The position numbers and the translations under genes were made by a program. Below, piece by piece: positions 17,721-28,519 of a stretch of DNA of 64,000 nucleotides. The notes under the pieces were generated by a model that saw only the letters and a program-made list of their open reading frames with translations, made no database searches and was not told the origin of the DNA. The stretch is taken from NCBI RefSeq assembly GCF_017498545.1, contig NZ_CP071793.1, forward strand, positions 7,308,256 to 7,372,255, in the 5' to 3' direction. This stretch comes from Sulfidibacter corallicola (GTDB taxonomy: Bacteria; Acidobacteriota; Holophagae; Acanthopleuribacterales; Acanthopleuribacteraceae). Position 1 is the stretch's first letter. Every line of letters starts with the position of its first letter.

Positions 17721-18065
17721 TTCCTAAACCTCTGAGCAATGCCGATAAATGATGGGAGAGAGAAACTATCGAGGGGCCTGTGCGAGATTTAATGAGAGCG
17801 TGTAGAATAGGGAAAATTCAAATTTTTACAACTGCTGTACCTGTGCAGGGTAGCACTTATTTGTTGGTGGACGCAATGGTGAGTTCGGGATGTCTATGAA
17901 TAAACTTGAAATTTTTTCTGTGGCGAATGTCACGCTTTCGAGACCTCTCATGAAAAATAAGCGTGAAACACCACCGTTTTGGCTCAGGAAATTTCCTAAA
18001 CGCGGAATTGGCGAAGAATCGCGTCTCGATGGGGAATCTTTGGGCACCCGTCATTGGGCCGGGCT

Positions 18066-19424
18066 TCAGGGGTTCGCGCCCGATTGGCTGCTGGATCCAG
18101 CCCGTTCCTTGCCTTGTCGCTGACGTCGTACTTCGTAGCGTTGGTACAACGCCTGGCCTTTCTCTTCCTGGCCGGTGGCCTTATAGACGGCGTAGAGCCG
18201 GTAGAACAGCATGTTGGGCGACACCCACAGAAAGCGGTCGGCCCGTTCCAGGTGGTGTTGGCAGCTTTGGGCCTCGCGGGCTTCCCAGGCTTGCAATCCG
18301 GCGCGGTAGTGGTAGTGGCCCAACCCGTCTTTGACCACCGCGGCCCATAGAAGAACGATCAAACCCGCCGCCGCCCATCCGGATCGGAATCGTTTGGAAA
18401 GGAGCTGGGGCACCCAAACTATCGTCAGCCATCCCAGACACATACCCATGCAAAATGCGAGGAAGATGCCGATCCCGTAGAGCTCCGAATAGATCAACCC
18501 GACCGCGGCGGTCATGGCCCAGAATCCCAGTTCGACGGCCAGTGGCACCGGTTCGAGACCGTCGGGTAGGGCGCGCTTCTGCGGTTCTCGATTCTCCTTG
18601 GCGGGCGAACTCATGCTGAGCGCGTCGGTGGGACAGGCCGCCACACAGGACATGCACCCGGTACAGCCGATCGCGGCCACGTGGAAACGCGTGTTGACCA
18701 TGCGCGAGACATCGAGGTCCATGGGACAGGCCGTGCTGCAATTACCGCAAGCCGTGCAGTCTCCGGTCCGCCGGACCTTGTAGCGGGCGGCGCGCTGCCC
18801 CAATCCGAAAAGGACGCCCCATGGGCACAGTGTTCGGCAGAATACGCGTCTTCCCAAAAAAAGAGGCATGATCGCCAATACCATTAATAATGTAAGAGAG
18901 CCTTGGAGCCAGCCTGGCAATAATTCCCACGGCTCGGTCAATGTCAAATCTATCGAAACCGGCGGAAGTGTGCGCGTCCATCGATTGGCGATCGCCTCCC
19001 AAGCGAAATACCAGATAAGCACGAAGCCGGCGGCGAGCGGGCCGAATCGCAACGGGAATCCGCGCATGCGAATGCCCAGTTTGTGGTAGAGCGATTCCAG
19101 CAGGTCGTAGCTCAACCCGATGTGACAGATCCAGCCGCAGAACCAGCGACCCCAGACCAGGGTCAACCCCAAAAAGGTGAGGAAGAACAGGCCGCCGGCG
19201 GTGAGCACGTTGCGTTCGATGAAATTGCGGAAGAGCTCCTGCATGTCGATGGCGCCGATGTGGTGCCAGCCGCGCGCATACCACAACCACAGATGCAGTC
19301 CGATGAGTCCGTGGACCACGCCGAAGGCCACCAGCCGGCGCCACGTCAGGCGGCGCATCCTGATGGAAATCGGCGTACGCGGGGAAGAGGGTTCGGCGGC
19401 GTGTTCGGCAAGAGGTCGGGTCAT
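18066..19424 (-). CDS. Polytopic membrane 4Fe-4S polyferredoxin (NapH/MauN/CcoG-like)
   Basis: Two CxxCxxCxxxCP clusters (CTACGNCSTACP, CTGCMSCVAACP). Several hydrophobic helices. I place the start at the internal ATG at 19424 with a GAGGA RBS. The ORF track starts at 19568, and its first 48 residues look non-coding. Confidence 0.6.
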   Translation of the reverse strand: MTRPLAEHAAEPSSPRTPISIRMRRLTWRRLVAFGVVHGLIGLHLWLWYARGWHHIGAIDMQELFRNFIERNVLTAGGLFFLTFLGLTLVWGRWFCGWICHIGLSYDLLESLYHKLGIRMRGFPLRFGPLAAGFVLIWYFAWEAIANRWTRTLPPVSIDLTLTEPWELLPGWLQGSLTLLMVLAIMPLFLGRRVFCRTLCPWGVLFGLGQRAARYKVRRTGDCTACGNCSTACPMDLDVSRMVNTRFHVAAIGCTGCMSCVAACPTDALSMSSPAKENREPQKRALPDGLEPVPLAVELGFWAMTAAVGLIYSELYGIGIFLAFCMGMCLGWLTIVWVPQLLSKRFRSGWAAAGLIVLLWAAVVKDGLGHYHYRAGLQAWEAREAQSCQHHLERADRFLWVSPNMLFYRLYAVYKATGQEEKGQALYQRYEVRRQRQGKERAGSSSQSGANP

Positions 19425-20111
19425 GGGGCAATCCTCGACATGGCGGGGTGGCGCGCGTATGCCGCGCAACGATCGGATCGATGGACCGCCGATCGTGGGG
19501 GTATCGAACGCGACGTGAATCGGAAATGGATTTTTTCCCAATCTGCGGTCACGGTGAGTTTTCGCCACGGAGGAAACGGAAATTAGACGCTGTTCGCGCT
19601 GTGTTTTATGGATTTATGTGCTCGTTTCCCTCTGTGGTTCCTGTCCGCGGTGGTTTGGAAGGACCTTGGTTTGCAGAACGATTTGACGGGACACGTTCCC
19701 GACTCGCGTCGAGCTACCATTAAATCACGAAACTTTCGGATGGCCGCGCTCTTTAGCCCAACCAGCGGTGGGTAGGGTCCGGTGCCACGTCCCATGACCC
19801 GTGGTTTCGGTTAGGATCGGCTCGGGCGAGGAGACCGATCTGCCGTGCCGGCACCGGAGATCCGGCTCATCGCACCGGGCTCCTCATGGGTGCTGCGGCA
19901 TCCGGTCTTTCAACCACCACAAATTCAAGCGGGAAGGCATTCTTGTCGTATGATTGGAAGATCTCCCCCCTCAAAGACTCAATGGTTTCGATCATCTCGA
20001 TGTTGCCGCTTCTCGGCAGGGCTCCTCGTGCTAGAATGTCCGGCCGCTCTGCCATACCTGGCGTGGCTGTAAATACCTCGATGTTCGATAAATCACGATT
20101 ATTGTGGAAAG

Positions 20112-23015
20112 TTGTTGACCGTGACTGTGACCAAGGTCCCCGATGCACAACGAAATCTTTTTCTTCGCCAGCTCCACGGTGCCGCCTTCTACCCCGGCAC
20201 CTCCAAACGCGCCCTGAGTCGGCTGTTGTGGCGTGCCGGCGAGTACGGGTTCGCGGAGGCTGGAACCTCGATCCTGGAAGCGCTCAAATCTCGCTATCCG
20301 ATGGTGTTGTATTGCGGGGCCTGGGCCGCGGGGCGGTGTGAGATCGATGGTGCTCGAACTCGTCTGGACTCGATTCAGCGAACGCAGCAACTTCCCGATT
20401 ACGTTCGCTTCATGGCGGGAGAAGCGTGGCGCCATCTCTTGACGCCCGATGAGAAAGCGACTTTGCGAGACCGTGGGTTCGGTGATCTCCCGGCCTGGTT
20501 TCGCGAAGTCTGCCAAGAGCCCGATTCCTTCGTGATGCGATTCCGCGAAATGCTCTCGCAACAGGCGGGGTTTCATCACGCCGCTCTCATCTGGGATTTG
20601 TACCGGATCGACGATCCGGAAGATCGGCGGGTGCGGCATTGCCTGCTCGCCGCGCTTACGGAGTTGCCACTGCGACCCCCGCTCTTCCGATTCCTGCGGC
20701 GAATTTTCAAGGCGGCGATCTTCCGCGGCGATGCGGAAGTGTTCGGAATCCTCGCCTATCGTTTCGAAGTGGAGCGTGCGCAGCGGGTTTCGGGGTGGGG
20801 TTGGGTGACCGACGGGCCCCAGGTCTTCAAGGTCCGGCTGCCTGACGAGTTCGCCAAGGACGGTTGTAAAATCGGCTTTCTCTCGTCTTCCAAAGATTAC
20901 TTGCGGCGCGCGTCCTGGCGCACGCTGAAGCGGATGGCCGAAACCGACGGTGCCACCTACGTTCGGTTTGCGGCGGAGCTGCTGCGTCACTATCGCGACG
21001 AAGACGGCAAAGAACCACGGAGCTATCGCCACTACGACGGCATCGAGGAAACCTGGCACGAAGTGGTGGCCGACCGTTTCGCCGCCTGTTTTCTGATGAA
21101 CCAGGTCATCTACGGGCGGAGCCCGCGCTACCGGCGCCCCCCCGGCCGCCTTCACTGGCGCTGTCGCGGCGATTGGGTGCCCGGCGATGCACCGCCCGAC
21201 GTGCGCGAGGAGGCCTTTCCCGAACTTTGGGATCAACGCCCCGATTTGTTGCGCATGCTTCTGCTGCGCGGTCGTTGCCACCGGGTTCACCAGTTCGCGG
21301 CAAAGGCGCTCGCCGATCGGGCCGACACGACCTGGACCCTGCAGGATCTGGTCGCGCTGCTGAACGGGCCCTTTCCGGAAACGCGGGCCCTGGGCTTCCA
21401 CTTGGTGCGGCATCGCCATGCCGACCTGATCGATGAGCCGGAGATCGCCACGGCGTTGCTGTTGTGCCCGGAACCCGAGGCCCATCGCCTCGCACTCGAT
21501 CGCGCGCCCGATCCCTCCTGGCCGGCCGGTCACCCAACCGTGGTGGTGCGTTGGGCGCTCAGCACCCATCGCGACGTTCGACGAGCCTGTCTCGACTGGC
21601 TGGCCACCAACCCGCTGCAGCCCGATTTCGCCGAACACATTTTGCACCGTCTGACCGTGCGGCTGGCCTCCGGCTTGTCCGGGACCCTCGAGACGGCCTG
21701 GGCTCGGGATGTGGCCGCGATCGTCGAAACCCTGGGTGAACGCGTCGAAGCCACGGGGGACCTGGCGCGGGCGGGCTTCGCGCCCAGTGAGACCGTCGCC
21801 TTGGAGATGATGGACCATCCTTGCGAGGACGTGGGACGCCTTGCCCTGAGGCTTTTGGCGCGTTTCGCGGCAACGCCCGAATCGCTTTCCGATGGCTTTT
21901 GGATGGCGGTCTGGCGGGCCGAGGACCGCTACGAATTGGGTTTGGACTTGTTGGGCCGCCTGCCGGATTCGGCACTCCTGCGTCACGCCGCCGCGCTGGT
22001 CTTCTTTTGCCGCGATTCGCGCGCGGCCGTTCGCGAGCGTGCGGGCCTGCTGCTGGATCGGCTGTATTCGATTTCCCCGGAGTGCCGCGAACTGGCGGTT
22101 CAACTGCTGTGCCGCGATCTGCTGCGGGCACCCGATTCGCCGGAGGCGCACCAGGCGCGCCTGGAGGTCCTGTGCGGTCCCCTGCAGTGCGGCCTCGTCG
22201 CGGTGGACGATGCCCTGCTGCGACGCCTCTTGGCGGTGCCCCATGCCGCGGCACACCGGCTCGCGGCACAGATCATCCGCCATTTTCGCGATGTGGCGGA
22301 TTTCGAAGAGCGCGACCTGGTGCGGCTGGCGGATCACGTCTTGCCGGAACTGCGGGTGTTCGCGGCCTCGGCCGCCCTGCAGTGGTTCGAGCCGGAGACG
22401 CGACGTTGCTCCGCCGTCTGGGCATCGTTGTTGGACAGCGAATGGGAGGATACCTTCGAATTCGCCACGGCCCTCTTCGAAGAGCTTTTGGCGGAAGGCA
22501 AGCTGTCGGCCGATGCCTGGCTCGCATTGCCTCGTGCCAAAAGTGACCGGGGTCGGGATTTCAGCCGGCGATTGCTCGATTTCGCGCTGAATGACGTCGG
22601 ATCTTGGCCGCATCTGGTCGAACTCGCGAATCGTGCATCGGGTGCGCTTCTCGAACGAATCGCCGTCCGGATGCTGGCCGAGGTGGACCGGGCGCCCAAA
22701 CACGTGGCCGAATTCGGCCCCGTCATGGGTGCCCTGTTGACGAACCGCGCCGCTTCTGGAACATTGCGTCGCCGGGCCCTGGAACCGGTTTTGGACGGCA
22801 TGGTCGGTGGCCGGTTGGCGCCCTCCGTCGGTTGGTCCTGGTTGAACCGCTTACAGAGCCGGCTGCCCGCCAGGCGGCGCGGCGAATTGGTCGCGGCCCT
22901 CGCGGCCAAAGGGCTGGTGTGGGCACCGGGCGCCAAGAAAAAATCTCCGCCTTTCGGGTTGATGGTACAGCGGGTTCCCGTTCCCGTTCGCGAAAGCCGG
23001 CGCGTCACGACCTGA
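20112..23015 (+). CDS. Large (967 aa) predicted all-alpha/HEAT-ARM-like protein of unknown function. Candidate partner or effector of the downstream retron-type reverse transcriptase.
   Basis: TTG/GTG start region. Very strong GC3 bias along the whole plus-strand frame. The overlapping 890-aa minus-strand ORF is R/Q/G/P-rich and looks like an antisense artefact. Leu/Ala/Arg-rich with helical periodicity. No catalytic motif recognised. Ends 494 bp before the RT ORF on the same strand. Confidence 0.55.
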   Translation: MLTVTVTKVPDAQRNLFLRQLHGAAFYPGTSKRALSRLLWRAGEYGFAEAGTSILEALKSRYPMVLYCGAWAAGRCEIDGARTRLDSIQRTQQLPDYVRFMAGEAWRHLLTPDEKATLRDRGFGDLPAWFREVCQEPDSFVMRFREMLSQQAGFHHAALIWDLYRIDDPEDRRVRHCLLAALTELPLRPPLFRFLRRIFKAAIFRGDAEVFGILAYRFEVERAQRVSGWGWVTDGPQVFKVRLPDEFAKDGCKIGFLSSSKDYLRRASWRTLKRMAETDGATYVRFAAELLRHYRDEDGKEPRSYRHYDGIEETWHEVVADRFAACFLMNQVIYGRSPRYRRPPGRLHWRCRGDWVPGDAPPDVREEAFPELWDQRPDLLRMLLLRGRCHRVHQFAAKALADRADTTWTLQDLVALLNGPFPETRALGFHLVRHRHADLIDEPEIATALLLCPEPEAHRLALDRAPDPSWPAGHPTVVVRWALSTHRDVRRACLDWLATNPLQPDFAEHILHRLTVRLASGLSGTLETAWARDVAAIVETLGERVEATGDLARAGFAPSETVALEMMDHPCEDVGRLALRLLARFAATPESLSDGFWMAVWRAEDRYELGLDLLGRLPDSALLRHAAALVFFCRDSRAAVRERAGLLLDRLYSISPECRELAVQLLCRDLLRAPDSPEAHQARLEVLCGPLQCGLVAVDDALLRRLLAVPHAAAHRLAAQIIRHFRDVADFEERDLVRLADHVLPELRVFAASAALQWFEPETRRCSAVWASLLDSEWEDTFEFATALFEELLAEGKLSADAWLALPRAKSDRGRDFSRRLLDFALNDVGSWPHLVELANRASGALLERIAVRMLAEVDRAPKHVAEFGPVMGALLTNRAASGTLRRRALEPVLDGMVGGRLAPSVGWSWLNRLQSRLPARRRGELVAALAAKGLVWAPGAKKKSPPFGLMVQRVPVPVRESRRVTT

Positions 23016-23544
23016 ACCGGCTCGGTGGCGTGCCCGTCACGCCGTCCATTCTTTTTCTGGATTTGATTGTCATGAAGATCGAAACGAACATGCGACGACG
23101 TCCCGGCTCGACCGTTCGGGACCTATCGAAACCGGGTGATCGGTGGCACCCCTTCTTTGGGCGGTGGGCACCGGTTAGGATAATGGCGAGGCTGGCTTCG
23201 GGCGCCGGTGCCGGGCTCGCTCGGAGCGAGTCGCGCGTTACCGTTTTCCAAAAATCCGTTTTGGGCTATGATGTGCGCACCCCGATCGGGGGATGCGACA
23301 CCGACCGACCGCCTTGCATCCCGGATGGCGGATCGCCATCCCTGCTTTCAGCCACGACATGCATCACCGGCCGGCCTTTGGCACACCGGGGCCTTTTCCG
23401 AAATCCGCATTACGGTCTGAATTCCGTGAACTTAATGCGTGCTTTCGGCACGACCCCGCCGATGGCTGAGCCGTCCGGTTCCGAGAAGTCGACGAAGGTT
23501 TCGGGTCGGTGTCGCCCTTGCTCGGGCAGGGGAGGTGCGGTGCT
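23016..23544 (+). ncRNA. Candidate retron non-coding RNA (msr-msd) region upstream of, and overlapping, the RT start. Exact boundaries not determined.
   Basis: Noncoding stretch rich in local hairpins: GCTCGCTCGGAGCGAGTC, GATGGCGGATCGCCATC, GGATGCGACACCGACCGACCGCCTTGCATCC, CGTGCTTTCGGCACG. Its position is what retron architecture predicts. The a1/a2 repeats and the branching G were not pinned down. Confidence 0.3.
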
Positions 23545-24882
23545 GTGATCGATCCGCATACATCCCCCGACCCCTCCGGCTTCGCACCTTCCGGACCTGA
23601 AGCGTCTTCGGACCAAAGGTTGCCGACCGTCGATTCGCAGGACCAGGTGGTGGATCGCGATCTTTGTCTCGATCCCTTGCGAACCGAGTTGGAACAACGC
23701 CTGGGCGATGAGGCCCGGCGCCGACTTCGTCGTGAAAGGAACCTGGCTGCCCGACGGAGGTCCCGTACACCTCGACCCACGCCGCCAAGGGTCCCAACCC
23801 AAACGCTGACCTACCTCGGTGATCGCCTGAGTGGCGGGCTCCAAGATCGGCGCTCGCGACTGGATCGTCTGGCCGACCACCCCCAGTTGCCGGTGCTCCA
23901 CGATGCCGATGACCTGGCTGCGGCGATGGGAATCGAGATTTCCGAACTTCGGTTCCTGGCGTTCGCGCCGACGCATTCAAGAGTGAACCACTACCAGCGA
24001 TTCCTGCTGCCCAAGAAAACTGGGGGACATCGCCAGATTTCGGCACCGATGCCGCGCTTGAAGGCCGCCCAACACTGGATCTACCAACGGATTCTGGCTC
24101 AAGTTCCCGTCCACCGGGCCGCCAAGGGGTTTCTGCCCGGCCATTCGATCGTGGACAACGCCAGACCGCACGTGGGCGCCGACGTGGTGATCAACATGGA
24201 TCTGGAGAACTTCTTTCCCACCATTACTTTCGCCCGGGTCAAGGGTCTCTTTCGCACCTTGGGGTACAGCGAGCAGGTCGCCACCATCCTGGGCCTGCTC
24301 TGTACCGAACCCGAAGTGGAGACCTACGAGTGGTTGGGCGAGCGATACCACGTGGCGCGCGGGCCAAGGTTTTTGCCCCAGGGGGCGCCTTCTTCGCCAC
24401 CGGTCACCAACCTTCTGTGCCGGCGCCTGGATCGCAGGCTCGACGGACTGGCGCGAAGCCTGGGATTCCATTACACCCGGTATGCCGATGACCTGACGTT
24501 TTCCGGTTCGGGCGAGGCCACCGACCGGGTGGGCAAACTGCTGGGCAAGGCGCGCGACATCATCGAACACGAGGGTTTCAGGCCTCATCCGAAAAAGACC
24601 CGCGTTTTGCGAGCCGGCCGCCAGCAGGAGGTGACCGGCATCGTGGTCAATCGAAAGTTGTCTCTGGATCGAAAGACGTTGCGCCGGTTTCGAGCGGTTC
24701 TGTTCCAGGTCGAGCTCGACGGGCCCGCCGGCAAACGCTGGGGTAACGGCGGAGATCTGCTGGCTTCGTTGGAGGGTTACGCCCATTTCGTGCACATGGT
24801 CGACGCGGAGAAGGGCCGCGCGTTTTTGGATCGGGTCGAAGCCATCAAAGCGCGTTACGGATCGGATTCGATCGAGTTGTGA
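23509..24882 (+). CDS. Retron-type reverse transcriptase (RNA-directed DNA polymerase)
   Basis: RT domain 1 LPKKTGGHRQISAP. NAxxH (VDNARPHVG). Domain 3 VINMDLENFFPTI. QGxxxSP (LPQGAPSSPPVTNLL). YADD catalytic box (YTRYADDLTFSG). VTG (QQEVTGIVVN). The ORF-track start is a GTG at 23509. An alternative GTG at 23545 has a GGGGAGG RBS. The ~150 aa N-terminal extension may partly be msd DNA rather than protein. Confidence 0.85.
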   Translation: MSPLLGQGRCGAVIDPHTSPDPSGFAPSGPEASSDQRLPTVDSQDQVVDRDLCLDPLRTELEQRLGDEARRRLRRERNLAARRRSRTPRPTPPRVPTQTLTYLGDRLSGGLQDRRSRLDRLADHPQLPVLHDADDLAAAMGIEISELRFLAFAPTHSRVNHYQRFLLPKKTGGHRQISAPMPRLKAAQHWIYQRILAQVPVHRAAKGFLPGHSIVDNARPHVGADVVINMDLENFFPTITFARVKGLFRTLGYSEQVATILGLLCTEPEVETYEWLGERYHVARGPRFLPQGAPSSPPVTNLLCRRLDRRLDGLARSLGFHYTRYADDLTFSGSGEATDRVGKLLGKARDIIEHEGFRPHPKKTRVLRAGRQQEVTGIVVNRKLSLDRKTLRRFRAVLFQVELDGPAGKRWGNGGDLLASLEGYAHFVHMVDAEKGRAFLDRVEAIKARYGSDSIEL

Positions 24883-24938
24883 GGCATGCGGCAACGTCAA
24901 TACCTCGGCTCACGGGCACTTCGAAGCGGTTTGTTTCG

Positions 24939-25305
24939 CGAGAATGAACCCCGATCGCGTTCTGATCCGGCGTGCGCCCAGCTCGATTTCGAGAATGAAA
25001 CATCGCGAAGCGAGCCGCTTCGAAGAGCCTCCACATGCGCAAGAGACGTAAAGCCTGTAGGTTGAGCAGCTTGCTCAACCAGTCGTAGCAACCCAGGCAG
25101 CGACAATCAATTACGCCAAAGAGCGAAGCCGATCATTCTCCTCACGACCCCAATCGAAAGCCGTGAGGTCCAAAGTTCCCGCATCGGGAGAGCGGCGTCA
25201 GGCCTGTAGATTGAGCAGCTTGCTCAACCAGTCGTAGCAACCCAGGCAGCGACAATCAATTACGCCAAAGGGCGAAGCGCACCCTTCCCCGGATCGCGTT
25301 CCGAT
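24939..25305. repeat. Cluster of MITE-like family-A repeats. A 77-bp unit with the palindrome TTGAGCAGCTTGCTCAA is directly repeated at 25052-25128 and 25201-25277, and the leader part (24956-25060) recurs at 48303-48387.
   Basis: Direct reading: two near-identical 77-bp copies with 2 mismatches, flanked by the related motifs CGCGTTCTGATCCGGCGTGCGC and CGCGTTCCGATCCGGAGTGCGGG. Confidence 0.75.
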
Positions 25306-26224
25306 CCGGAGTGCGGGATCCCATGAATTCGCCGCTTCAGGGGCCGTCATTTCATAGTGATCGTCGCATCGAGTCGCGATGTGGAAGCGATGGGAACCGA
25401 AACTATGCGTTTCCGCTTGTGAAACTATGGATGATTCCTCATGGGGTAATAAAAGTGGTGCGCGTAAATGGACGAGACCGACGTTCGAGCGCGCGGGTCC
25501 TGCGGTCTACGGCAACGCAACCGGTGAAGCCCGATCGAGCGCCTTGTTCAGCCGGAAGAAGGCCCGATTCGCGCGCATCGTGGTCGACTCTCTCATGAAA
25601 ATGGCTGTCCCGTTCGGGTCGGTTCTGTGTTAAGTGTCTTTAGTGCACTTGAAATATTGTATTTACGTTGAGGTTGTTAGGGCTCATCGGAAGATGAACC
25701 CTGTTGTAGAGCGATGCCCGGAAAAAAATACCGAGGCGACAAGGCGGTCGTTTCGCGCCACTGGAGAGGGAAAAAATCGGGCACATGCTGTCGCATCGAC
25801 GAGCGACATAGGGCTTGCGAGCGTCCCTGAAACCCGAGCCGGATGAGGCGAAGCGTCTGAAAGGCACGGATTTGGATTCCGGCGCTGCCGGTTCGGAGGT
25901 GGGCTGTACGGGTGGATTTCGGCTGCGATCCGGGCTGCGTCGCGCATCGATGGATTGTCGCCCAGGGAGGACCAGCAAATAGGCCCGAGATTTGCTTTGT
26001 GATGTGGCATACGGTCTGTAAAGACATTCGGATTTCTGAATATTAATCATCGAATTGCATGTCAGAAGAATGGAGTCAAAGCCATCCACACATTGATCGG
26101 TTAGGATGCGAAGGCCGCCATGAATCGCCAATTCTTTCAATGAAAACGGCCGTTGAATCGCATCTCCATACTTTCATCAATTTCTTTGTTTAACCTAAGC
26201 ACTGTTCCGCAAAGGGAGGGTTCC

Positions 26225-28519
26225 TTGAGTAAGTTGGAGTGGGCGAGTTCCGCCAAACGTCTTCTTCTAACGGTGGTGTTCACCGGAATCATGCTTCTGC
26301 CGAGTGCGTTGATGGCTCAGTCGTTCAGCGTCACCAATCGAACGTCCTCGGCATCCAATTTCGCCGAGAGGGACGGTTCGGTAACCGTCACCGTCGATGT
26401 CCGCAATACCGGTTCTCAGACCTTGACCAATGTCGTACCTCACTTAGTAGCACCCGCTTGTGCCGAATATCTAGGCTCGACCATTTTTAATACTACTTAT
26501 CTTGGGTATGGAAGTTCGCAGGTGCTCGCGCCCGTACCTTCATGGGGTCCCAATACCACCCAGTCACTGACCTTCAACATCCATATGGTCGACAACAGTT
26601 TCATGTGCCCCGATCTGGGTCCGGCCAATCTTCCGGCCGATTGCTTGACGTTCGAAGTGGGGTTCACCCACGCCGCCAACCCCAACCTGGTTTTCGCGTC
26701 CGATTCGTCCAATCAATTGCGTTTCTCCAATCCTCCCGCCGATGGAATTCGGGTCGTCGACGTCATCTCCGACACCAACCCGGCGCCGCGGACGGAAGGC
26801 GGCGGTTGCAGCCTCTACAACTCCTCGAGCTGGACCGTCCCCATTCGCGACCAGGGCCTCAACCGCTCGCAGGTGGACAACACCAGCTATCGCCTTTTCC
26901 TGGGCATCGATTGGAACCTCAACGTCAACAACGTGCCCAGCGGCGAGAATCTCGAGTGGTGGAACGGCCTCGCTTCCTTCCAGTATCCCCTCGGTAACTC
27001 CTATTACGACCTCTGGGTCGCCCTGGTGCGCGAGGAAATCGCGATGATCGACCCCTCGACCCAAATCTTCGACGCTTCCAATCGCCTGTTCCCCCAACGC
27101 GAGTTGGGCGGGCATGGTCTCTTCAACCAAATCGACTGTGACAGCGAGACTTGGAACTTTTTCGACATTACCGAGCAAGAGGTCAACGGTCAGACGGTAC
27201 GCGAAGTCCTGACGTCCCCGGTTTCCATTCCGGTCCGTTTCCAGCAACGCAACACCCGCGTCAATTTCCGATCCGCCGCACTGTACGTGATGAACGTCAA
27301 CGGCTGTACCCAAGCCTCGGCGTTCGGGGATATCGCCAATCTGAATGCGTTCCAGTTCACCCAATTCGCGATGGACGAGGACGGCAACGCCGAAGCCGCG
27401 GTGAGCGTTCCCGCGGCCTGGCGATCTGGGAATCAGTTGACCGGCAGTTACACCATCGAGTGGTACTATCGCCAAACCGACAGTTTCGCCCGGGCTACCC
27501 GCATCGGTGGCGGTACCACCGACCCCCGCGCCCTGAGCACCGATCTGAGCCTGCCTTCCGGCGAGCCTGGCGAATACCAGATCGAAGCGCGCATCAAACA
27601 CAGCTCGGGTGCGGTGATCTCGGTCGTCTCGCCGGCCCACGGTTTGACCTATCAATCACTGGTGGAGCCGCTCTTCCTGGACGCCGAAGATCCCATCGCC
27701 GACACCTACCTGGACTTGGGCGAGATTCTCGAACAACCGTTCAGCTTCCGCAACGACACGGGCGCCAACGCCACGGTGCGCATCACCTTGGGTTCGGTGA
27801 GTCCCGCCGACGCGCAGATCGCGTTCGGCACGGACAGCCAGGGCCTGGTTCACGGGGCCTGTGCCGACAGTCGCCAGGTGATCAGTGTGGGCGTAAACAA
27901 CGGATCGACCTTGAATCTGGGGCTCTGGTACCGCCTGCTGCAGTTGTCGCGGGAATGCGAGTCCCTGCGGTTCTCGATCGACGTGGCCTATACCCAGGGC
28001 AGCTTCACCTCGAGCTACAAGCAGACCTTCTCCGTGTTGGGCAACTGCCAGGACGAGGCCGCCAAGTGGTTTGAAAGCGACTTCGAAAAGGCCGGCGCCA
28101 CGGTGCCCGACAATCCCTTCAACGTGGACCTGGACGGCCTGCTCGCGTTCTGGGGTTTCTGTCCCAACACCCCGCTCGCGTTCCCCGTGTTAGGGCAGGG
28201 CAACTACCGAATGCGTTGGTTCGACGGTGCCGAAAGCCTGTGCAGCGATGCCCCCGAAGCGGGTGTGAACGGCGCGGTCTGGGCCGATCCCGATCTCACC
28301 GAGACAGGCGATATCTTCGTGGAAATTCGCGATCTCGACAACGATGTCACGCGGGTCTATCCCTTCCGAATCGTGGTGGTCGACGTGTTGCCGGCCCGCG
28401 AGGACCTGCTGCCTCGTTGGCGCGAATCCACCAACGACGACGTGGACATGAACGGCGACGGTTTCGTCGACCTGCTCGACATGCTGATTTTCTATAGCGC
28501 AGGCGGCTGCGGCCGCTGA
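26225..28519 (+). CDS. Large secreted protein of unknown function with a C-terminal dockerin-like Ca-binding repeat
   Basis: Proposed TTG start at 26225 after an AAGGGAGGG RBS (the ORF track starts at a TTG at 26153). Signal peptide KRLLLTVVFTGIMLLPSALMAQS. C-terminal DVDMNGDGFVDLLDMLIF. Confidence 0.5.
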   Translation: MSKLEWASSAKRLLLTVVFTGIMLLPSALMAQSFSVTNRTSSASNFAERDGSVTVTVDVRNTGSQTLTNVVPHLVAPACAEYLGSTIFNTTYLGYGSSQVLAPVPSWGPNTTQSLTFNIHMVDNSFMCPDLGPANLPADCLTFEVGFTHAANPNLVFASDSSNQLRFSNPPADGIRVVDVISDTNPAPRTEGGGCSLYNSSSWTVPIRDQGLNRSQVDNTSYRLFLGIDWNLNVNNVPSGENLEWWNGLASFQYPLGNSYYDLWVALVREEIAMIDPSTQIFDASNRLFPQRELGGHGLFNQIDCDSETWNFFDITEQEVNGQTVREVLTSPVSIPVRFQQRNTRVNFRSAALYVMNVNGCTQASAFGDIANLNAFQFTQFAMDEDGNAEAAVSVPAAWRSGNQLTGSYTIEWYYRQTDSFARATRIGGGTTDPRALSTDLSLPSGEPGEYQIEARIKHSSGAVISVVSPAHGLTYQSLVEPLFLDAEDPIADTYLDLGEILEQPFSFRNDTGANATVRITLGSVSPADAQIAFGTDSQGLVHGACADSRQVISVGVNNGSTLNLGLWYRLLQLSRECESLRFSIDVAYTQGSFTSSYKQTFSVLGNCQDEAAKWFESDFEKAGATVPDNPFNVDLDGLLAFWGFCPNTPLAFPVLGQGNYRMRWFDGAESLCSDAPEAGVNGAVWADPDLTETGDIFVEIRDLDNDVTRVYPFRIVVVDVLPAREDLLPRWRESTNDDVDMNGDGFVDLLDMLIFYSAGGCGR

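Follow-up and report, generated by a model that had tools for sequence, protein, structure and literature searches.

Does the reverse transcriptase (RT) gene of the acidobacterium Sulfidibacter corallicola, together with the large helical protein encoded upstream of it, represent a new RT-based defence system? The initial annotation of a 64,000-nt stretch of the 11.8-Mb S. corallicola genome (contig NZ_CP071793.1, positions 7,308,256 to 7,372,255; hereafter the window) had proposed this. It described the pair as a possible undescribed retron, or a type resembling the defence-associated RTs (DRTs), whose partner lay outside the known retron effector classes. Our analysis gave a different answer. 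The locus is not a new defence system or a new class of RT-based immunity; it is very probably a reduced, two-gene form of the type XIII retron lineage, with an architecture for making multicopy single-stranded DNA (msDNA). Judged from sequence, what is left as novel is that the locus lacks both the SWIM/DEDE protein of this type and the WGR domain of its HEAT protein.

The two open reading frames (ORFs) were found intact and full length on the same strand at the positions first reported (20112-23015 and 23509-24882), and the segment reads, all on one strand, HEAT/ARM gene, msr-msd non-coding RNA (ncRNA) and RT. As publicly annotated, the genes are:

20115-23015, + strand: HEAT/ARM-repeat accessory protein of a type XIII retron, cluster-216-like, 966 aa
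23545-24882, + strand: retron RT, RT clade 10 / RT_XIII, 445 aa, annotated GTG start

The longest ORF of the HEAT gene starts with TTG at 20112 (967 aa), one codon before the public gene call, and its product is identical to hypothetical protein SCOR_03580 of S. corallicola. The longest RT ORF starts with GTG at 23509 (457 aa); this codon falls within the a2 arm of the ncRNA described below, so the annotated start at 23545 is more likely. By the longest ORFs, the gap between the two genes spans 493 nt (23016-23508).

All four retron hallmarks that had been read in the RT were present: NARPH at residue 217, QGAPSSP at 291, YADD at 325 and VTG at 375. Over nearly its entire length the protein matched the PADLOC model RT_XIII (5.5e-165, 547.9 bits), followed by RT_other with 323 bits, and retron RT models scored it at about 200-550 bits. 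It also matched Pfam RVT_1 (5.1e-19), and the closest solved RT structure was that of Ec86 RT (7.9e-43). Its nearest relatives were RTs encoded in canonical WGR-HEAT/SWIM/RT loci of many phyla, at 50-63 % identity, and identity with the RTs of Acanthopleuribacter was only 47-49 %. At the level of sequence, the RT belongs to the clade 10 / type XIII family. Several other classes were tried. A group II intron RT was ruled out by a maturase score of 49.3 bits against a cut-off of 300, and Rfam gave no intron match in 18000-27000. A DRT identity was ruled out by scores far under the cut-offs for Drt2 (25.8 bits) and Drt3a (16.7 bits). Retron models matched best, and an identity as a diversity-generating retroelement (DGR) or abortive-infection (Abi) RT was rejected as well. 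The first assignment of the enzyme to retrons, and not to group II introns, DGRs or Abi RTs, was thus correct.

Type XIII includes the first retrons discovered, the myxobacterial Mx162 and Mx65. In the classification of Mestre et al. (2020; PMC7736814), the type combines an RT of clade 10, a distinctive ncRNA, a primary protein and, usually, an upstream HEAT/ARM accessory protein. The primary protein (cluster 114_1) carries a DEDE motif, a winged helix and a C-terminal SWIM zinc finger, and the accessory protein belongs to cluster 216_1, with a WGR-like domain and HEAT/ARM repeats, or to clusters 216_2, 259, 1688 or 3262. Cluster 216 co-evolves with the RT, and the experimentally known members are Retron-Mxa1/Mx162, Mxa2/Mx65, Nex2/Ne144 and Sau1/Sa163 (PMC7736814). 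A 2026 survey likewise presents type XIII as an abundant, taxonomically broad and established type.

We examined the partner protein against this background. It is rich in Leu (13.7 %), Ala (12.9 %) and Arg (12.1 %), and its AlphaFold (AF2) model, with a mean predicted local distance difference test score (pLDDT) of 88.4 and a predicted template modelling score (pTM) of 0.73, contained 66 % helix and 4 % strand. In this model the protein is a HEAT-type solenoid, so that composition and fold both agree with the earlier description of a Leu/Ala/Arg-rich, HEAT/ARM-like protein. The term "all-alpha" fits the helical bulk of the model and does not fit a small beta-containing insert at residues ~220-365. 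The protein had no Pfam match, and NCBIfam gave nothing useful. Foldseek against the PDB returned generic HEAT solenoids only (CAND1, karyopherins, SF3B1 and RRP12; template modelling score about 0.2), and a PDB sequence search returned only designed alphaRep/HEAT proteins. No enzyme fold was found by Pfam, Foldseek against the PDB or the PDB sequence search, as expected of a partner described as having no recognisable catalytic domain.

The further claim that this partner was unknown among retron effector classes did not hold. The protein matched PADLOC WGR_XIII at 3.6e-135, with residues 30-822 covering positions 109-843 of the 973 in the profile, and matched three HEAT-ARM_XIII models more weakly; the C-terminal ~145 residues lay beyond the profile match. 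Because the WGR_XIII and RT_XIII profiles match, the partner is, by its profile matches, the catalogued HEAT/ARM accessory protein of type XIII and not an unrecognised effector class. It aligned over nearly its full length with cluster-216-type proteins, and 57 homologues were found in the protein database.

The gap between the two genes had been described as hairpin-rich, and retron RTs as acting with an msr-msd ncRNA. Such an element was found in the gap, conserved and supported by covariation, with the following parts:

23288-23520, + strand: type XIII retron ncRNA (msr-msd), whole with a1/a2 terminal stem, by homology, covariation and fold
23295-23315, + strand: a1 arm, with a 12-nt perfect repeat (23295-23306), an internal loop and the conserved CCUU (23312-23315)
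23316, + strand: candidate branching (priming) guanosine, directly 3' of the a1/a2 stem
23323-23341, + strand: msr hairpin GGAUGGCG-GAU-CGCCAUCC, helix 3
23366-23479, + strand: long msd stem-loop, predicted msDNA template, helices 4-8
23495-23515, + strand: a2 arm, with AAGG (23495-23498), a loop and the 12-nt repeat (23504-23515)

A single-sequence nhmmer search with the gap recovered an element of ~200 nt upstream of the RT in ~50 other loci (E 1e-15 to 1e-5), the conserved segment in the window being about 23298-23500. The window ncRNA was homologous at the nucleotide level to the SWIM-RT intergenic element of canonical loci, including that of Nannocystis (L004). A profile built from 39 copies matched 73 of the 85 sequences searched, and matched the window once, at 23297-23503. 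RNAalifold gave 54 consensus pairs, 39 of them with compensatory changes. The paired positions were filled by true pairs in 93 % of cells, compared with 35-43 % when the partners were slid, and the covariation score of 0.508 was reached by none of 500 shuffles (at most 0.106). The window sequence itself forms 46 of the 54 pairs. The 3' part of the gap (23288-23520, 233 nt) folded better than shuffles (z = -3.0), with a minimum free energy fold that reproduced the architecture, and the whole gap did not (z = -0.96); only the 3' part carries the folding signal. An Rfam search of 18-27 kb (E <= 1) yielded nothing but a chance pRNA match that lies outside the locus; Rfam thus has no family for the type XIII ncRNA.

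The terminal stem was the most specific part of the element. The a1/a2 inverted repeat of the window is 12 nt long and 100 % complementary, and its duplex was calculated at -34.6 kcal/mol, a value equalled by none of 38 non-cognate 3' arms. Across the family, cognate arms averaged -29.0 kcal/mol and non-cognate arms -13.7 (sd 5.5); the a1/a2 sequences vary from locus to locus, and their mutual complementarity is always kept. The CCUU/AAGG pairing forms helix 1, and the G corresponding to 23316 was invariant in 39/39 aligned ncRNAs. Helix 3, the msr hairpin, comprises 8 pairs (99.4 % paired, 4 with compensatory changes) and helices 4-8 of the msd comprise 39 pairs (34 with compensatory changes); the inner msd stem is hypervariable in sequence and retains its pairing. 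RT family, the HEAT/ARM body of the accessory protein, ncRNA family and ncRNA fold all match type XIII. Gene order and strand match too, with the HEAT gene upstream and the ncRNA immediately 5' of the RT. The proposal of an undescribed retron or DRT-like type was not borne out, given the RT_XIII match, the type XIII ncRNA and the low Drt scores.

Single ncRNA copies, as in the window, were not universal. Two to four tandem copies lay between SWIM and RT in 14 of the 73 ncRNA-bearing sequences (L010:6758-7738, L041:6721-7691, L032:6864-7716, L005, L008, L026, L037, L038, L048, L061, L065, L069, L077 and L082). The four copies of L010 had a common msr and outer msd and each its own a1/a2, and their inner msd stems differed in sequence yet remained self-complementary. 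A single RT might thus produce several different msDNAs.

The window locus differs from type XIII as described in two respects: its HEAT protein has no N-terminal WGR domain, and the cluster 114_1 SWIM/DEDE/winged-helix protein is missing within 64 kb. In alignments with 11 and 53 homologues, the first ~95 residues, which form the WGR domain, were absent only from the window protein and two Acanthopleuribacter proteins; past this region, these three aligned with the family through to the C-terminus. The WGR part of the WGR_XIII profile (positions 1-108) was unmatched by the window protein, and this protein may be a member of a WGR-less subcluster, for example 216_2. A frameshifted or separate upstream WGR ORF was considered and ruled out. 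Position 20112 is the first start after a stop, so an N-terminal extension of the HEAT ORF is impossible, and no WGR-like sequence was found in any frame of the 64-kb window (best E = 0.2, noise). Other short HEAT homologues were noted (P0055 and P0057), with SWIM still adjacent at both loci. At the metagenomic locus of P0055 (L086:5437-8539) the HEAT gene appears to be divided between two overlapping ORFs, of 210 aa and 841 aa, which could reflect a frameshift, a sequencing error or a separately encoded WGR/N-terminal part.

The SWIM gene was sought by tblastn with ~50 SWIM_XIII proteins (E <= 1), and nothing above noise turned up across the 64 kb (best E = 0.009, 30 bits, at an unrelated position). 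A SWIM pseudogene in the gap was also considered and rejected, since tblastn of the gap region gave no trace of one. No other component of the family is as conserved as the SWIM/DEDE protein, which is about 70 % identical across phyla, with 74 % mean column identity (alignment of L004, L005, L018, L030, L031, L046, L055 and L079), so a remnant in the window would be easily seen. Its profile found 6,163 matches in the protein database. By comparison, family-wide identity was about 55 % for the RT and 25-30 % for the HEAT protein. Such strong conservation is an unusual pattern for a presumed defence effector.

To place the locus among its relatives, we scanned one genome per species with an RT alignment, the HEAT alignment having no stretch conserved enough for this purpose. 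At least 552 relatives were found, of which the best 80 were fetched and typed by tblastn with HEAT, WGR and SWIM queries. Among these 80, the canonical one-strand order WGR-HEAT, SWIM, ncRNA, RT was seen wherever upstream sequence sufficed, in Cyanobacteria, Myxococcota, Bacteroidota, Acidobacteriota, Planctomycetota, Verrucomicrobiota, Massilia and a Vibrio. Exceptions were L067, in which the HEAT gene is inverted, and loci with the RT only. Nannocystis radixulma gave a typical example, with WGR-HEAT (1065 aa), SWIM protein (550 aa), gap and RT (514 aa), and PADLOC matches to WGR_XIII (full length), SWIM_XIII and RT_XIII; the window RT has a shorter N-terminal extension (445-457 aa against 514 aa).

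A HEAT gene and an RT without SWIM were found, among the loci examined, only in the window and in Acanthopleuribacter. Acanthopleuribacter pedis (L001/L002) encodes a HEAT protein of 939 aa, a gap and an RT of 418 aa. A second Acanthopleuribacter genome (GCA_030429565, L003) encodes a HEAT protein of 942 aa, a gap and an RT of 436 aa. Neither has a SWIM gene within +/-8 kb, both HEAT proteins lack WGR, and both loci contain the ncRNA, so that the architecture is identical to that of the window. Sulfidibacter and Acanthopleuribacter belong to the same order, Acanthopleuribacterales. The Acanthopleuribacter HEAT proteins are the closest relatives of the window protein (35 % identity, compared with 22-30 % for others), and in Acanthopleuribacter the HEAT C-terminus still matches the PADLOC profile to position 963, unlike that of the window. 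Synteny of partner and RT in other genomes, which had been proposed as a check, was thus observed in both Acanthopleuribacter genomes and in Nannocystis. Between the two Acanthopleuribacter loci, the ratio of nonsynonymous to synonymous substitution rates (dN/dS) was 0.11 for HEAT and 0.09 for RT; dS was saturated, so the ratios are approximate. By these values, the reduced form is clearly under purifying selection in the Acanthopleuribacter lineage.

Twelve loci of the census had only the RT (L013, L019, L029, L034, L043, L056, L060, L066, L068, L072, L074 and L081). Their RTs are clade-10-like and ~55 % identical to the window RT, and no type XIII ncRNA, HEAT or SWIM was found in the fetched flanks, which include the full 8 kb upstream in eight of the twelve. 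In several cyanobacterial loci (L020, L016, L055 and others), the ncRNA follows directly after SWIM and the RT core lies 1.3-3.8 kb further downstream. The RT is therefore separable, and tight linkage is not absolute.

How such a locus would work can be outlined from the retrons with solved structures, namely Ec86/Eco1 (type II-A), Ec78/Eco7 (type I-A), Eco2, Eco8 and Kva2 (type IX). These have in common with the window locus the RT core and the msr-msd plan, including the a1/a2 stem and a G that, in the window, is the predicted site of the 2'-5' branch. Also shared is the tripartite idea of an RT-msDNA particle with a partner protein. No solved structure of any type XIII component was found in the PDB. 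The partners of the solved retrons are enzymes or toxins (NDT, PtuAB, Toprim, OLD-like ATPase-nuclease and HEPN), whereas the only partner in the window is a non-enzymatic HEAT solenoid.

Two further features, both from a consensus scan, enter the proposed sequence of events:

23024-23056, + strand: terminator-like hairpin (23024-23046) and T-run, 9 nt past the HEAT stop codon
23245-23272, + strand: promoter-like site TTTCCA-16-TATGAT, ~20 nt upstream of a1

In our model, the HEAT transcript would end at its own terminator-like hairpin, and a promoter just upstream of a1, for which the site at 23245-23272 is the candidate, would drive the ncRNA-RT transcript. The ncRNA would fold so that the a1/a2 stem presents the invariant G at 23316. 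The RT would then prime on the 2'-OH of this G and copy the msd stem-loop (about 23366-23494), giving a multicopy single-stranded DNA of roughly 110-140 nt still joined to the msr RNA. The HEAT solenoid lacks a catalytic fold, and proteins of cluster 216 are reported to co-evolve with the RT; the most likely role of the solenoid is that of a non-catalytic scaffold or sensor attached to the RT-msDNA particle. By analogy with other retrons, the particle may restrain the activity of the partner until a phage disturbs the msDNA. Without the SWIM/DEDE candidate effector, the output would be carried by the HEAT protein itself or be absent. The usual candidate effector is missing, and defence is therefore the least secure step of the model; we regard an anti-phage role, argued from analogy, as possible and somewhat short of an even prospect.

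Several observations weigh against the assignment to a working type XIII retron or against the function proposed for it. Eight positions of the window's msd stem are mismatched relative to the consensus pairing. The branching G is a candidate, and it and the msDNA length were assigned by analogy with general retron architecture. Promoter-like and terminator-like sites fall at the expected places as consensus matches only, and they were no commoner than in shuffled sequence. One promoter-like site was found against 1.3 expected, which is weak on its own, and the terminator-like hairpin is suggestive by its position only. A SWIM gene could lie outside the window, in another part of the 11.8-Mb genome. 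Production of msDNA and phage defence are attributed to the locus by extension from other retrons, and no experimental function for any type XIII retron was found in the literature searched. PADLOC found no defence genes in the +/-10 kb flanks, and inheritance of type XIII appears partly vertical, with a moderate correlation with host 16S and a suggestion of possible domestication (Mestre et al., PMC7736814).

The last three of these points are also the ground for a serious alternative, in which the locus is a vertically inherited, domesticated msDNA element with a cellular role other than anti-phage defence and the HEAT protein handles the msDNA. It would fit a locus whose putative nuclease-like effector is missing, whose HEAT protein has no catalytic fold and whose neighbours within 10 kb are metabolic/housekeeping-like or unknown. 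On the other side, the locus has different neighbouring genes in Sulfidibacter and in Acanthopleuribacter and hence does not occupy a fixed ancestral position, and the hypervariable msd stems and locus-specific a1/a2 arms resemble the diversification of defence retrons. To our knowledge, every retron type tested so far acts in defence. Taking both sides together, we consider a domesticated role possible but unlikely.

The reduced form can also be read within the type XIII assignment in more than one way. In the midpoint-rooted neighbour-joining tree of the RT core, built with no outgroup, the Acanthopleuribacter pair and then the window fell outside all canonical three-gene loci. This position may possibly be a long-branch effect after secondary loss. 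Tentatively, the two-gene form of Acanthopleuribacterales might instead be a self-sufficient minimal core of type XIII, possibly ancestral, in which HEAT alone is the functional partner and SWIM/DEDE and WGR are later add-ons. If so, type XIII would owe its true effector logic to something other than the predicted nuclease.

It is also conceivable, although improbable, that the retron is a complete three-protein type XIII system in which the gene for the SWIM/DEDE protein, perhaps along with one for a separate WGR protein, lies at another place in the S. corallicola chromosome and its product acts in trans. The conservation of SWIM, with its more than 6,000 database relatives, and its presence at every examined HEAT-bearing locus except those of the Sulfidibacter/Acanthopleuribacter lineage would suit this explanation, as would the cyanobacterial RTs that lie away from the ncRNA and SWIM gene. 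It has to contend with the failure to find any SWIM homologue in the window or around either Acanthopleuribacter locus. In addition, the SWIM-less, WGR-less arrangement is common to three genomes despite a HEAT identity of 35 %, which indicates a stable architecture and not a recent rearrangement. Far less probable is a decaying, non-functional remnant left by deletion of SWIM and WGR from a three-gene type XIII retron. Two missing family components, the unmatched HEAT C-terminus and the mismatched ncRNA pairs could be taken as signs of decay, but both ORFs are full length, all RT catalytic motifs are present, and the perfect 12-bp a1/a2 is kept along with 46 of the 54 ncRNA pairs. The gap shows no remains of a SWIM pseudogene, and the architecture persists in two Acanthopleuribacter species at a dN/dS of about 0.1. 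Finally, an undescribed retron or DRT-like type with a novel effector class, to which a partner without Pfam or NCBIfam family or enzymatic fold match might have pointed, can be set aside as extremely unlikely, since both proteins match type-XIII-specific profiles at E below 1e-130, the ncRNA is that of type XIII and canonical type XIII operons contain homologues of the partner.

As a reduced type XIII retron, the locus has uses of its own. A reduced form under purifying selection is a useful natural experiment, and it lends support to the view, already published, that the partner with which the RT co-evolves is HEAT and not the SWIM protein. It is also a smaller construct with which the role of the HEAT partner can be addressed.

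Downstream of the RT, no gene was called in 24883-26224, in line with the earlier remark that nothing is encoded directly after the RT; the gene that follows (26225-28519) has the same + orientation. The repeats earlier described as MITE-like are, in this interval, only two direct copies of a 100-nt element (25042-25141 and 25191-25290) that are 89 % identical and 149 nt apart, with no third copy found elsewhere in the 64-kb window. The palindrome GGTTGAGCAGCTTGCTCAACC lies within each copy. Closer to the gene, an imperfect 27-nt inverted repeat (24915-25029; 85 % complementary, 61-nt spacer) starts 33 nt past the RT stop and might be a terminator or regulatory hairpin.

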